A model generated the notes under the pieces. The model was not told the origin of the DNA. It made no database searches and worked only from the letters and a program-made list of their open reading frames with translations. Of a DNA stretch of 64,000 bases, positions 3,840-6,731 are shown one piece after another (the first letter of the stretch is position 1; the number at the start of each line of letters is the position of its first letter). The DNA is taken from the NCBI GenBank assembly GCA_018819225.1, contig JAHJQN010000003.1:64001-128000 (forward strand). The letters run 5' to 3'. A program made the translations under genes and the position numbers. Source of the stretch: Candidatus Micrarchaeota archaeon. GTDB lineage: Archaea; Micrarchaeota; Micrarchaeia; Norongarragalinales; SBBD01.

Positions 3840-4418
3840 TTGAAAATCGGCGTACTCGGTTTACAGGGAGCGGTGTCGGAACACCTCGAGGTGCTTCGCA
3901 AGCTTCCGGTGGAAGCGGTCTGGGTGAAAGAGGATAAGCACCTCGCGGCCGTGGATGCGTTAATCCTTCCCGGAGGCGAAAGCACCACCATTTCAACATT
4001 GCTGGAAAAAAACCGTTTATTTGAACCGTTGAAAGAACGCGCAAGCAACGGAATGCCGATCTTCGGAACGTGTGCAGGACTCGTATTGTTGGCGAAGGAT
4101 GCAGGACGACAACAGCAACAGACCGGCCAAAAATTATTGGAGCTCATGGATATGCGCGTGAACCGAAACGCGTTTGGCCGACAAAAAGACAGCATGGAAG
4201 CCCCGATAACCATTCAAGGCATTGCAGGAAAATTCCCGGCCGTGTTCATCCGAGCGCCCGTTATTGAAAAAGTGAATGGAACGTGTCACATCATTGCGCG
4301 TCTCGATCAACACATCGTCGCTGCGGAACAAGAACCATTCCTGGCCACGAGCTTTCATCCGGAGCTCTCCGGCGATTCGCGCGTACACGAATATTTCATT
4401 CGGAAAATCAAGCGCTAG
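3840..4418 (+). CDS. pdxT: Pyridoxal 5'-phosphate synthase, glutaminase subunit
   Basis: KIGVLGLQGAVSEH, ILPGGESTT, FGTCAG, RNAFGRQ, FIRAP, SFHPEL. TTG start at 3840 preceded by AGGCGA. Confidence 0.96.
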   Translation: MKIGVLGLQGAVSEHLEVLRKLPVEAVWVKEDKHLAAVDALILPGGESTTISTLLEKNRLFEPLKERASNGMPIFGTCAGLVLLAKDAGRQQQQTGQKLLELMDMRVNRNAFGRQKDSMEAPITIQGIAGKFPAVFIRAPVIEKVNGTCHIIARLDQHIVAAEQEPFLATSFHPELSGDSRVHEYFIRKIKR

Positions 4419-4918
4419 TAAATCGACACTTTCTTCACGCCCTTGATTTGCGGAAAGCGATTCAGCAAAGCACCCGGAATCTTGCGTTCGGTAATGATGA
4501 GGAGAGTCGGGTTCTCAAATAGCTCGGGATCCTTCGCGTACACTTGACGAATCCGAATCCGTTTTTCCGCCAACAGTTGAGTGGCCGCAGCCACGATACC
4601 GCCTCTCCGCGCATCCGCTTCAATTTCAACGACCCCGAAACCCAGCATCGGGGCCACCTCCCGCAATAACGATCCCGCCGGTTGAATATGGGAGAAAATT
4701 TTGTTTAGATACGGATCGGAACGAATCCCTGCAATGGTTCGACGGACCATCCGGCGGTCGACGCCCGCGCTTTGCGCTAACGAGGCATCCTTGACTTCCA
4801 CATCCCCGCAACAAATTTTTCCGTCCTCGCGAATCCGGAGCCCCAACTCGACGAGCTTTCGCGCCACCGATTTCTGAGCCGGCAGGCCACCAAACAATCC
4901 CGAAACCCGATTCCACAT
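4415..4918 (-). CDS. trpY: TrpY-like tryptophan-sensitive transcription regulator (N-terminal DNA-binding domain, C-terminal ACT domain)
   Basis: Starts MW at ATG 4918 and W2 is its only Trp, the known TrpY hallmark. Has GVDRR and an ACT-like C-terminus (IRQ..DP). Divergent from trpB2 across TGTACA boxes. Confidence 0.85.
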   Translation of the reverse strand: MWNRVSGLFGGLPAQKSVARKLVELGLRIREDGKICCGDVEVKDASLAQSAGVDRRMVRRTIAGIRSDPYLNKIFSHIQPAGSLLREVAPMLGFGVVEIEADARRGGIVAAATQLLAEKRIRIRQVYAKDPELFENPTLLIITERKIPGALLNRFPQIKGVKKVSIY

Positions 4919-4920
4919 AA

Positions 4921-4946
4921 TGTACAAATATGTACAGCAATGTATT
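4921..4946. promoter_or_regulatory. TRP boxes (TrpY operator): TGTACA-N4-TGTACA-N4-TGTATT
   Basis: Perfect TGTACA palindromes at 4921-4926 and 4931-4936 and a degenerate copy at 4941-4946, with a 10-bp period. This matches the known TrpY consensus TGTACA. Confidence 0.88.
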
Positions 4947-4951
4947 AAATA
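4943..4951. promoter_or_regulatory. Probable shared or overlapping TATA box for the divergent trpY and trpB2 genes
   Basis: TATTAAATA lies ~25 nt upstream of the trpY ATG (consistent with a leaderless transcript) and ~50 nt upstream of ATG 4999. It overlaps the third TRP box. Confidence 0.6.
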
Positions 4952-4998
4952 GATACGTCGAGTCGATGGAAGATACCAGTCAGCTAGAGGTGTTTCTA

Positions 4999-5028
4999 AT
5001 GAAACCAGGCGAGTTACTTTGGCGTTAA
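4999..5028 (+). other. Trp-codon-containing leader ORF (MKPGELLWR*) and candidate +1 frameshift site CTT-TGG (5017-5022)
   Basis: SD GAGGTG at 4987-4992, then ATG AAA CCA GGC GAG TTA CTT TGG CGT TAA. The +1 frame (TTT GGC GTT AAA...) is the TrpB2 frame. Confidence 0.7.
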
Positions 5029-6316
5029 AACCGTATTAACCGAGGACGAGGTCCCGAGAAACTACTACAACATATTGCCGGACCTCCCCAAACCGCTCGA
5101 TCCTCCACTGGACGGACAAACCCGCATGCCCATCACTCCCGATGCGCTCAAACCCATTTTTCCGATGGAAATAATCCGGCAAGAGGTTTCCACGCAAAAA
5201 ACGATTGCGATACCCGACGAAGTACGCGAAGCGTATTTGAAATTGGGACGGCCTACCCCCTTATACCGCGCAAAGAAATTGGAAGCGAAACTGAAAACGC
5301 CCGCAAAAATCTTCTTCAAGCGAGAGGATTTGAATCCGTGCGGCTCGCATAAGCCGAATACCGCCATCGCGCAAGCCTACTATTCCATGAAAGAAGGCGT
5401 GGACGTGCTGGCCACGGAAACCGGTGCCGGACAATGGGGAACCGCTCTCGCTTACGCGACCCAGCTTTTCGGCTTAAAATGCGACGTGTTCATGGTGCGA
5501 ACCAGCTTTGAACAAAAACCGTACCGGAAAACGCTCATGCAACTCTACGGAGCCCACGTCACCCCCTCCCCGAGCCAGCGCACAACATTCGGGCAAGAAG
5601 TGCTAAAAAAAAGTCCGGAACACCCCGGGAGTCTTGGAATCGCGATCAGCGAAGCCTTGGAAACCGTCGTCACATCTAAAAACGCGAAGTACTCGTTGGG
5701 AAGCGTGCTCAATCACGTGTTATTGCACCAAACCGTCATCGGACAAGAAACACTGATTCAACTCGCTAAAAACGATGTCGAACCGGATGTCATGATTGGC
5801 TGCGTGGGAGGCGGCAGCAACTTCGGGGGATTCGCGTTTCCGGCCATGGAACGCAAACTCAAAAAGAAAACGAATACGCGGTTTATTGCCGTAGAACCCG
5901 ATGCCGCGCCATCCATCACCAAAGGAACGTACGCTTACGACGCAGGGGACACGGCCGGCATGACGCCGTTGATGAAAATGTATACGCTGGGGAAGGAATT
6001 CATTCCATCCCCCATTCATGCCGGCGGGCTGAGATATCACGGCATGGCACCCGCCATCTCTCTGCTCGCGCAAGAAAAACTCATCGAAGCGAAAGCGTAT
6101 TCCCAGATCAAAATCTTCGATGCGGCCGCGCTGTTTGCGCAAACCGAGGGAATCGTGGCGGCACCGGAAAGCGCGCACGCGATCGCGGCGGCCATTGATG
6201 AAGCCAAAGCATGCAAACGCTCGGGAGAAAGGCAAACCATTGTCTTCAATCTCTCGGGCCACGGACTCCTTGACCTGAAAGGATACGAAGACTACTTGGA
6301 AGGAAGAATCACGTGA
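4999..6316 (+). CDS. trpB2: Tryptophan synthase beta chain type 2 (TrpB2). Needs a +1 frame change from ATG 4999; the ORF track starts it at TTG 5075.
   Basis: RPTPL, GSHKPNTA (PLP lysine), TETGAGQWG, GSLGIAISEA, GCVGGGSNF, HAGGLRYHG, FNLSGHG. The TrpB2-like N-terminal segment KTVLTEDEVPRNYYNIL lies in frame upstream of 5075 and is bounded by TGA at 5000-5002. Confidence 0.95.
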
Positions 6317-6323
6317 TGAAAAA

Positions 6324-6731
6324 ATGCCGTTAATTCCCGCTGGACAACTCAGGCCGCACGAGCGCATTGAACGAATGCGGTTAAGAAAAGTACGCGCGGA
6401 TATCGAAGCGCGAGGCGTGCTCGACTATCCGTTGCTTGTCTACGAGGAAACGCGCGTTATATTGGATGGACATCACCGCTTTCGCGCGCTTCAACTAATG
6501 GGCTGTCCGCTGATCCCCGTCCAGTTCATTAGATATGAAGGAAAGGCCGTGCAAGTCAGCAGCCAGCGCCCCGGCGTACGCGTCAGCAAAGCGCGTGTCC
6601 GTGAACGCGGTTTAACGGGCCGTTTATTCCCGCCCAAAACCACGAAACACGCATATAAGAAAAGGAGAAAACCGTTTAAATTAAATGAAAGTAGCGTCCT
6701 CGCTTTGGAGGGCGGACCCACAATATATTAA
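6324..6731 (+). CDS. ParB/Srx-fold protein, SerK/SbnI-like candidate free serine kinase
   Basis: LRPHE, ILDGHHR and C-terminal PPKTTKH motifs. Starts 7 nt after the trpB2 stop. Contains no Trp. Confidence 0.7.
   Translation: MPLIPAGQLRPHERIERMRLRKVRADIEARGVLDYPLLVYEETRVILDGHHRFRALQLMGCPLIPVQFIRYEGKAVQVSSQRPGVRVSKARVRERGLTGRLFPPKTTKHAYKKRRKPFKLNESSVLALEGGPTIY

Follow-up and report, generated by a model that had tools for sequence, protein, structure and literature searches.

The window analysed here, meaning the whole stretch of 64,000 nucleotides under study, belongs to contig JAHJQN010000003.1 of Candidatus Micrarchaeota archaeon, and coordinates at the trpB2 locus are given relative to it. 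The locus comprises a divergent regulator gene, a short leader reading frame that overlaps trpB2, trpB2 itself and a small downstream gene:

4415–4918, minus strand: trpY, gene for a TrpY-family transcription regulator, divergent from trpB2
4921–4946, no strand assigned: TRP-box-like array with a 10-bp period
4987–4992, plus strand: Shine-Dalgarno (SD) sequence GAGGTG serving the leader ORF, its GGTG core 6 nt 5′ of ATG 4999
4999–5028, plus strand: leader 0-frame ORF, MKPGELLWR*, with Trp as codon 8 and the stop at 5026–5028
5007–5012, plus strand: internal SD-like AGGCGA, with its GGCG core (5008–5011) 5 nt from CTT and 6 nt from the +1 TTT
5017–5023, plus strand: proposed shift site CTT_TGG_C, with P-site CTT (Leu) and A-site TGG (Trp)
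5021–6316, plus strand: trpB2 frame after the proposed shift, 431 codons and a stop
6324–6731, plus strand: small SerK/SbnI-like (ParB-fold) gene

The trpY product matches NF053754 (TrpY_fam) with 193.7 bits against a cut-off of 180. Its start is probably ATG TGG (MW), the complement of 4913–4918, and a divergent gene of 167 aa is called at the same position in relatives. The adjacent array consists of TGTACA (4921–4926), TGTACA (4931–4936) and TGTATT (4941–4946), and overlaps an A/T-rich, TATA-like stretch at ∼4943–4951; relatives also have pairs of TGTACA 5′ of trpB2. Binding of TrpY to TRP boxes has been described in Methanothermobacter, but TrpY homologues are not all trp regulators, as the T. 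kodakarensis homologue does not regulate trp (PMC6737238). Judged, like the array itself, from sequence alone, the criteria of TrpY-family membership and of TGTACA boxes in the divergent promoter region are met; there are no DNA-binding or Trp-response data. The downstream gene, which has partial NCBIfam matches to NF033589 and NF053625, is a probable operon partner of trpB2, and a gene of 118–129 aa follows trpB2 in eight of the nine related loci with called genes that were examined (the exception is L181). No tryptophan-forming enzyme besides TrpB2 was found in this 90%-complete genome, nor were TrpA, IGPS, anthranilate synthase or any other trp genes.

TrpB2 matches NF009057 and TIGR01415 with 696 bits (cut-off 366) and 660 bits (cut-off 519), respectively. 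The PLP-lysine motif GSHK, with K117, is invariant, and the protein contains a single Trp. The NF009057 profile alignment begins at residue 9 of P0001, and residue 3 of PDB 6HUL_B aligns with residue 13 of P0001 (E = 3.9e-152). Protein-level conservation in the trpB2 frame extends over the region from the shift site to TTG 5075, which can be aligned both to the family profile and to TrpB2 structures that have been solved. The peptide that follows the W in the 0 frame is not conserved, and its stop lies 2–49 codons away.

The leader ORF reads ATG AAA CCA GGC GAG TTA CTT TGG CGT TAA. Its SD is exactly complementary to CACCUC near the 3′ end of the 16S rRNA of the same genome (16S 3′ tail pairing with GAGGTG: ...GAUCACCUCA). 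The TrpB2 frame is +1 relative to that of the leader and is open to the stop at 6314–6316. Upstream it is closed by TGA 5000–5002, with a TAA immediately before, and TTG 5075 is its first canonical start, with no earlier ATG, GTG or TTG after this TGA. AGGCGA is followed by four nucleotides (GTTA), then by CTT (5017–5019) and TGG (5020–5022). A +1 slip at CTT_T would place the P-site tRNA on TTT (5018–5020) with GGC (5021–5023) as the next codon, and the predicted trans-frame product, MKPGELL joined to GVKTVL..., would contain 7 + 431 = 438 residues. The first-pass annotation had proposed a prfB-like frameshift from these elements, and its description is accurate: GAGGTG and the ATG opening MKPGELLWR* match the sequence exactly, the absence of an in-frame start between the TGA and TTG 5075 is borne out, re-pairing into GGC GTT AAA does give a 438-aa protein by frame arithmetic, and AGGCGA does lie 4 nt before CTT.

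Its further suggestion, that AGGCGA acts as the internal SD does in prfB, can be retained only in part. The register agrees: counted by 16S pairing, the GGNG core is separated by 5 nt from the P codon of the 0 frame and by 6 nt from that of the +1 frame, the latter distance being the modal SD-to-start spacing in these genes. The tightness of the prfB SD is not reproduced, as GGNG is just one base “too close”. Across the 18 related sequences described below, the element has G at −9 in every case, G at −11 in 17 and R at −12. Its duplex with the anti-SD, computed for six sites only, has an energy of −4.5 to −10 kcal/mol, compared to a mean of −2.5 for coding background; among random coding positions, 15% pair at least as strongly as the weakest of the six (−4.5 kcal/mol), and these energies are only moderately beyond background. 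For the conserved RGNGRW hexamer, located one codon before the P codon, a stimulatory function can at most be inferred.

A tRNA-Leu(GAG) gene is present among the five tRNA-Leu genes, all of which were located, and tRNA-Trp has a single gene. The tRNA census itself (13 tRNAs with aragorn without introns) remained incomplete even with introns allowed and with Rfam and motif searches added. No conserved 3′ stimulatory RNA structure was found, the consensus fold having an energy of −1.1 kcal/mol without supported helices, and the leader in the window is no more stably folded than shuffled versions of it (z = +1.3). A search of the window genome for a second such cassette gave 18 crude hits; the two that were read besides trpB2 are not credible, and none of the remainder looks credible from its flanking sequence.

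The comparison set beforehand as a test by the first-pass annotation was whether relatives conserve an SD, an ATG and, after some codons, YTT-TGG with a +1 offset. They do: the cassette was identified in 18 distinct sequences, window included, with TrpB2 identities of 61–75%. Ten are GTDB species genomes from three families of the class (f1, f11 and f16), and eight are metagenome or other assemblies. In all 18, the leader frame has a start preceded by an SD, trpB2 is open in the +1 frame, codon 7 or 8 of the leader is TGG, and T-TGG is invariant. The GGTG-to-start spacing is 6–7 nt in 16. The P-site codon is CTT in 14 cassettes, TTT in two, GTT in one and CGT in one, such that the +1 codon is UUU in 17; the CGT codon (in L183) cannot re-pair well on GUU. 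The base after TGG is C in 12, G in five and A in one. The 17 sequences other than the window share the leader form M-x(1-4)-G-x-x-L-W, and the cassette consensus is AAA RGN GRW TNW CTT TGG C. Flanking leader codons are scrambled, with seven forms of the E-site codon. All 14 Leu codons in the P site are CTT, although CTT accounts for 13.6% of Leu codons in the window genome. The nearby 0-frame stop that had also been predicted is present in relatives, at a variable distance of 2–49 codons.

The trpB2 frame is closed 4–18 codons upstream in 15 cassettes and ∼5 codons upstream in the other three, and in complete copies it is intact for ∼431–433 codons after the shift site. An in-frame ATG is found in one of the 18, and some in-frame GTG or TTG near the site in 13; five, including the window, have no ATG, GTG or TTG before the conserved N-terminus. 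A metagenome pattern scan gave 64 hits, of which 62 are chance matches and two are real TrpB2 (a new cassette, L159, and a copy of G007). The controls were 80 trpB2 loci from other, distant lineages among the matches listed in a TrpB2-alignment search of genome contigs. All 80 of these listed loci have an in-frame start (ATG in 75), and an NTT-TGG leader or cassette is present in none of them. At the level of sequence comparison, the cassette layout is thus more than chance and is not a sequencing error, since it recurs in 17 further diverged sequences and in 0/80 of the listed controls; its anatomy, conservation and lineage specificity are established to the same extent. Relatives with an uninterrupted trpB2 had been named as a finding that would refute a frameshift. 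Such relatives do exist (e.g. G010, G001 and G002), but they are interspersed among the cassette-bearing genomes, and the reading is not refuted by them. On the TrpB2 tree, at least three changes are needed to explain the distribution of the cassette; the deep nodes are weak.

We consider it likely that trpB2 is expressed via a programmed +1 frameshift that senses charged tRNA-Trp, in the absence of any expression, proteomic or read-level evidence. Ribosomes would initiate at the SD-preceded ATG 4999 and read MKPGELL, which would place peptidyl-tRNA-Leu(GAG) on CUU in the P site and UGG in the A site. With ample Trp-tRNA, UGG would be decoded and termination would follow two codons on, yielding a 9-residue throw-away peptide. 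When Trp-tRNA is scarce, the A site would remain empty and the P-site tRNA could re-pair one base on, at UUU, possibly aided by the SD-like GGNG, which lies one base nearer the P codon than in normal initiation spacing. Gly-tRNA would then read GGC and translation would continue to full-length TrpB2 (438 aa). Together with the divergent TrpY and the TGTACA boxes, two layers of control are envisaged, with free Trp sensed at transcription and charged tRNA-Trp at translation. The prfB-like reading made from the window alone is thus supported by the comparative test. That the slip occurs, which tRNA slips, and that the rate rises upon Trp shortage are inferences only, and for the Trp dependence the inference rests solely on the invariant TGG codon and the function of the gene. 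Several observations weigh against the reading. In-frame CTT-TGG pairs are not avoided in other genes of the genome (62 seen, 59.6 expected), so that the heptamer alone is either not strongly shift-prone or its cost is tolerated; 13 cassettes have an in-frame GTG or TTG near the site that might serve as a start; the P-site codon is CGT in one cassette and GTT in another; the six SD-like duplexes are only moderately beyond background; and no conserved 3′ RNA structure was found.

A conserved cassette proves selection for the site, not regulation, and a real +1 frameshift could be constitutive, either setting a fixed ratio or acting as a tolerated corrective, with UGG merely a slow codon read by a single tRNA. 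The single tRNA-Trp gene would fit such a shift, as would the fixed high rate at which Ty1-type sites shift on a slow codon (PMC5009743). We regard it as unlikely, given that the A-site codon in 18/18 cassettes is that of the very amino acid TrpB2 makes, that UGG is not rare (1.14% of codons in the window genome, with 62 other in-frame CTT-TGG pairs), and that it is hard to see what a constitutive shift would gain over the normal in-frame trpB2 start of sister genomes such as G010 and G155. Trp-codon leader peptides are classical bacterial sensors, and the mini-ORF might instead act without any frameshift, by stalling or occlusion, while TrpB2 starts independently at GTG, TTG or a non-canonical codon. 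The 13 cassettes with an in-frame GTG or TTG within a few codons of the site, and the one with ATG, would permit this; the five that lack all three codons before the conserved N-terminus tell against it, and no candidate start has its own SD. A ribosome stalled at UGG would also cover the candidate starts, so that stalling under Trp shortage would block them, which gives the stalling model the wrong regulatory sign. As it further leaves the CTT/TTT exclusivity (+1 codon UUU), the constant +1 offset and the prfB-like register unexplained, and alternative RNA structures were not found, we judge it quite unlikely.

Gene callers effectively favor another reading, in which TrpB2 is N-terminally shortened, starting at TTG 5075 or ATG 5126, and the mini-ORF is an unrelated uORF. 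The pipeline-called TrpB2 of the window is only 396 aa (P0003), with an internal ATG as its start, the proteins called in relatives are 397–414 aa, and in the cassette-bearing records with called proteins that were examined the start is always downstream of the leader ATG. In the window genome and three relatives, these internal starts remove 24–41 residues that are conserved as protein in all relatives and align, from their first residues, with the profile and with TrpB2 structures in the PDB; TTG 5075, moreover, has no SD. In the other cassette-bearing records examined, the called start is a nearby in-frame GTG or TTG, or ATG in one. This reading is very unlikely, and pathway reconstructions and N-terminal models of such DPANN genomes would therefore be slightly wrong. 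An indel introduced in sequencing or assembly, or decay of trpB2 into a pseudogene, is kept in view by the lack of read-level evidence and by the draft nature of this metagenome-assembled genome (8 contigs), but is scarcely tenable when 18 independently assembled, diverged sequences have the same frame layout with intact frames. Two other candidates were rejected: an alternative genetic code because of the TAA directly before the TGA in the trpB2 frame, and transcriptional slippage as unlikely with a T-run of only 3–4 bases. Nor does the leader fit a trpL-type attenuator, which is defined by tandem regulatory codons and by mutually exclusive hairpins that lead to a terminator: it has a single Trp codon, and neither supported hairpins nor a terminator were found.

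Regulatory +1 frameshifts are known in which prfB senses release factor and antizyme senses polyamines. A 2016 review stated that no hungry-codon frameshifting was known to yield trans-frame proteins with a starvation-specific function (PMC5009743), a gap that a conserved CUU_UGG cassette gating tryptophan synthase would fill, if the Trp-responsive shift is real. It would then also be a new way of amino-acid sensing, an addition to the very few recoding events suggested for Archaea, and a case of a DPANN archaeon reaching the logic of a bacterial repressor plus attenuator via a prfB-like recoding cassette. Our searches of the literature on trpB2, TrpY, Micrarchaeota and Trp hungry-codon frameshifting found no description of such an element, and the earlier claim of novelty holds insofar as no published account of a Trp-codon frameshift at trpB2 was found. 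We are inclined, with some reserve, to see here the first example in nature of hungry-codon +1 frameshifting as the normal, selected route to a protein, paired with TrpY in a two-input logic.

Among the closest parallels is prfB (RF2), whose site is CUU_U, or in a minority UUU_U, preceded at a distance of 3 nt by an SD, and whose A-site codon is followed by C (PMC5009743). Both systems have a short, SD-led first ORF with the protein in the +1 frame (at trpB2 the 0-frame stop is 2–49 codons past TGG), a CUU_U or UUU_U site, and a slow A-site codon followed mostly by C. RGN GRW TNW CTT TGG C and AGG GGG UAU CUU UGA C are in identical register, with the G-rich SD-like element one codon (3 nt by plain count) 5′ of the P-site codon, and in both the product would ultimately relieve the A-site pause. 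They differ in that the A-site codon at trpB2 is the sense codon UGG in 18/18 cassettes, not a UGA read by the gene's own RF2. Charged tRNA-Trp rather than a release factor would be sensed, the gene encodes a biosynthetic enzyme and the host is archaeal. The shift would occur at codon 7–8 instead of ∼26, and in the 16S register the spacing of the SD-like core falls short of initiation spacing by a single base only. With UGG in the A site and trpB2 as the gene concerned, the cassette is not a member of the prfB family, even though it would work like prfB.

At the Ty1 site, CUU_AGG_C, a P-site CUU slips +1, as proposed for trpB2, at a sense codon in the A site whose tRNA is limiting; in the +1 frame the A site then holds GGC, for which tRNA-Gly is abundant, and no 3′ structure is needed (PMC5009743). 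Ty1 depends on a constitutively rare tRNA-Arg and maintains a fixed ratio, whereas the trpB2 site is the sole Trp codon of a Trp-synthesis gene, a contrast that in our analysis suggests supply-dependent shifting. The P-site tRNA at trpB2 is also probably tRNA-Leu(GAG), not a U34 tRNA. The transcriptional side resembles Methanothermobacter, in which trpY and the gene it regulates are divergently oriented and TGTACA boxes lie in the interval (PMC6737238); control there is transcriptional only, with no translational layer described. With E. coli trpL and B. subtilis rtpA, the trpB2 leader shares a Trp-codon mini-ORF placed before a trp gene, through which tRNA-Trp charging would be read by ribosome speed, and a companion protein that senses free Trp, namely TrpR or TRAP in the bacteria and, by inference, TrpY in this archaeon. 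It has one Trp codon instead of tandem codons, and neither alternative hairpins nor a terminator; it overlaps the gene, to which the shift would fuse it, and would not act via RNA structure. The underlying event would be that of hungry-codon frameshifting in E. coli, where a shortage of aminoacyl-tRNA leaves the A site empty and the P-site tRNA slips by a single base. Hungry-codon frameshifting is reportedly known from the work of Gallant and co-workers in E. coli as an error in test constructs, whereas at trpB2 an enzyme would ordinarily be made in this way.

The long trpB2 frame of the window lies +1 relative to a nine-codon leader ORF and is open up to a stop at 6314–6316. The features of this region are:

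4415–4918, minus strand: TrpY-family regulator gene, divergent from trpB2 (193.7 bits, cut-off 180)
4921–4926 and 4931–4936: TGTACA boxes between trpY and trpB2, plus a degenerate third box
4987–4992, plus strand: Shine-Dalgarno sequence (SD) GAGGTG, 6 nt ahead of ATG 4999
From ATG 4999, plus strand: leader ORF MKPGELLWR and stop (ATG AAA CCA GGC GAG TTA CTT TGG CGT TAA)
6324–6731: small gene of ParB/SerK/SbnI type, downstream of trpB2

GAGGTG is a perfect SD, since the 16S rRNA of the same genome ends in ...GAUCACCUCA. This mature 3′ tail is shorter than the usual ...CACCUCCU, and the 16S rRNA gene (contig C3, L170:1501-3830) carries an insertion or intron of ~770 nt near its 3′ end, between AAGTCGTAA and CAAGGTAGCC, which appears to contain an ORF, possibly for a homing endonuclease. 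Most tRNA genes of this genome also contain introns (108 nt in tRNA-Trp), some at non-canonical places, and standard scans find only 13–37 tRNAs.

The trpB2 frame is closed upstream by a TAA and the directly adjacent TGA (5000–5002), and the window sequence has no ATG, GTG or TTG in this frame between that TGA and TTG 5075. The first-pass annotation, which had described the SD, the nine-codon ORF, the +1 trpB2 frame and the lack of a start before 5075, thus agrees with the window sequence. The long frame encodes a TrpB2-type tryptophan synthase beta chain, matching NCBIfam NF009057 with 696 bits (cut-off 366). The profile alignment begins at residue 9 of the translated frame, and the third residue of the solved TrpB2 structure 6HUL_B aligns with residue 13. 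Judged from these two alignments, the conserved TrpB2 protein begins at least 12 codons 5′ of TTG 5075, so that a shortened TrpB2 initiated at this TTG would lose a conserved segment. In the pipeline annotation, by contrast, the protein (P0003) begins at an internal ATG and has just 396 residues.

The same arrangement, an SD-led leader ORF with TGG at codon 7 or 8 and trpB2 open in the +1 frame, recurs among relatives. With the window included, 18 distinct sequences of this cassette were found, whose TrpB2 proteins are only 61–75% identical to that of the window; comparison of trpB2 5′ ends thus bears out the +1 offset on which the first-pass annotation had built its proposal of a Trp-sensing frameshift. 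Within the GTDB order, trpB2 is present in 17 genomes, interrupted in 7 and with an ordinary in-frame start in 10. A class-wide sample added three cassette genomes from a third family, and metagenome and protein-database look-ups yielded eight additional distinct sequences. As a control, we read 80 trpB2 loci among the matches listed for archaea and bacteria of other lineages. Each of them starts in frame, 75 with ATG, and none has a leader of at most 14 codons from start to NTT-TGG with trpB2 open in +1. On the TrpB2 tree, where deep nodes are weakly supported, the cassette requires three changes or more, and its history is unresolved.

With the layout present in 18 independent assemblies, whose complete copies keep intact frames of ~431–433 codons, an indel or pseudogene is ruled out. 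In two species (G007, L009/L022; G009, L010/L021), trpB2 is split over contig ends near the same residue (~92–101); it is intact on a metagenome contig (L117) of the G007 organism, and the split looks like a recurrent assembly break. In the sister genome G155 (L218), also from the class-wide sample, the SD-led ATG is in the trpB2 frame (MWKGIVFGEVK...) and a relic GTC TTT GGG is simply translated. Set beside loci L209 and L214, it represents a naturally “fused” cassette; its second codon encodes Trp, as does that of trpY in the window.

All 18 cassettes have a GGTG-type SD and a leader-frame start, spaced by 6–7 nt in 16 (after choosing the correct ATG among ATG repeats in L021 and L022). The start codon is ATG, but TTG in two (L174 and L175, of genomes G045 and G044); in these two, the leader frame runs 43–49 codons into trpB2 before its stop, and 5–10 extra codons separate the shift site from the conserved VKTLL. 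TGG is codon 7 or 8 throughout. The preceding, P-site codon is CTT in 14 cassettes, TTT in two, GTT in one and CGT in one (L183, where re-pairing would be poor, a weak point of the frameshift reading), and therefore the overlapping +1 codon is TTT in 17. Every Leu P-site codon is CTT (14/14), compared to 13.6% of Leu codons in the genome carrying the window, and the leader codons next to it vary without evident constraint, with seven forms of the E-site codon. TGG is followed by C (12), G (5) or A (1); upstream, G is found at −9 in 18, G at −11 in 17 and T at −6 in 17, giving the consensus AAA RGN GRW TNW CTT TGG C. Past the Trp codon, the leader peptide is unconserved and stops 2 to 49 codons further on, while the +1 frame encodes the conserved TrpB2 N-terminus (VK.LL..DE.P..YYNI) in all 18.

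Only a few codons 5′ of the shift site, a stop closes the trpB2 frame, and just one cassette has an in-frame ATG. Independent initiation of trpB2 without any shift draws support from in-frame GTG or TTG codons near the site in 13 of the 18, although it could not serve the remaining five, the window among them, which lack any canonical start. Moreover, these GTG and TTG codons have no SD of their own and would be covered by a ribosome stalling at UGG, giving regulation of the wrong sign. Nor does independent initiation account for the CTT/TTT rule or for the constant +1 offset. The main alternative, a constitutive frameshift, cannot be excluded. However, UGG is not rare in this genome and CTT-TGG occurs in frame at 62 further places, so efficient constitutive shifting at the heptamer would be costly; a shift dependent on an empty A site and helped by the 5′ element fits better.

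In such a dependent shift, the P-site tRNA-Leu(GAG) would slip at CUU_UGG_C from CUU to UUU, forming two G:U pairs, while the A site at UGG is empty, aided by the SD-like element on the 5′ side. The tRNA-Leu(GAG) gene is present (C3, minus strand, ~46566), with an intron in the T-arm. The conserved GGNG core of the element lies 5 nt before the leader-frame P codon and 6 nt before the +1 codon; since 6 nt is also the modal SD-to-start spacing in cassette genes, an anti-SD duplex would favour the +1 register. For six sites, duplexes are predicted at −4.5 to −10 kcal/mol, compared with a mean of −2.5 for the coding background; this statistically modest support is suggestive and not decisive. No conserved RNA structure was found at the shift site.

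Trp sensing is the likely purpose of the proposed shift, although both shifting and its Trp dependence are inferred without reads, RNA or protein data behind them. In every cassette, the codon awaiting its tRNA is the only one for Trp, the amino acid that the enzyme makes. TrpB2 itself contains a single Trp, its gene is under a TrpY/TRP-box promoter, and no other Trp-forming activity was found in this genome. The window trpB2 is its only TrpB-like gene, and the TrpA, IGPS and anthranilate synthase families have no match in the assembly (90% complete, 1.37 Mb, 8 contigs). TGTACA is the motif bound by Methanothermobacter TrpY (PMC6737238). The probable start of trpY is ATG TGG (MW; 4913–4918, minus strand), and the corresponding “ccacat” is at the same place in at least 10 related loci with divergent trpY; a Trp codon 2 in a Trp repressor may add another Trp-dependent control. 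Downstream of trpB2, and often overlapping its stop, a ParB/SerK/SbnI-type gene of 118–135 aa is present both in the window and at 8 of 9 related loci with called genes seen (L177–L180 and L182–L184 included; L181 is the exception). The PLP synthase genes pdxS and pdxT, upstream in the window, also stay beside trpB2, a PLP enzyme. These SerK-like and pdxS/pdxT neighbors fit a route to Trp from indole and O-phosphoserine.

The layout is shared with the bacterial release factor 2 gene prfB (AGG GGG UAU CUU UGA C), where peptidyl-tRNA-Leu slips from CUU to UUU, likewise with two G:U pairs, during the wait at the A site. Shifting in RF2 genes takes place at CUU_U, or at UUU_U in a minority of species, with a stimulatory SD 3 nt on the 5′ side of the site and usually C after the A-site codon; at the yeast Ty1 site CUU_AGG_C, shifting is due to a slow sense codon, and an abundant tRNA-Gly serves the +1 codon GGC (PMC5009743). 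CUU_UGG_C of the window combines features of both. A 2016 review knew of no hungry-codon frameshifting that yields trans-frame proteins with a starvation-specific function (PMC5009743). Our full-text literature searches turned up no account of frameshifting in trpB2 or in Micrarchaeota, nor of any trp gene with a programmed frameshift that responds to Trp; the first-pass annotation likewise knew of no Trp-responsive frameshift controlling a trp gene. The proposed logic resembles dual Trp control in bacteria, where one system responds to free Trp and another to tRNA-Trp charging. We class the element as +1 recoding of the prfB/Ty1 kind, in which the inferred input (charged tRNA), the class of gene regulated and the domain of life would be new.
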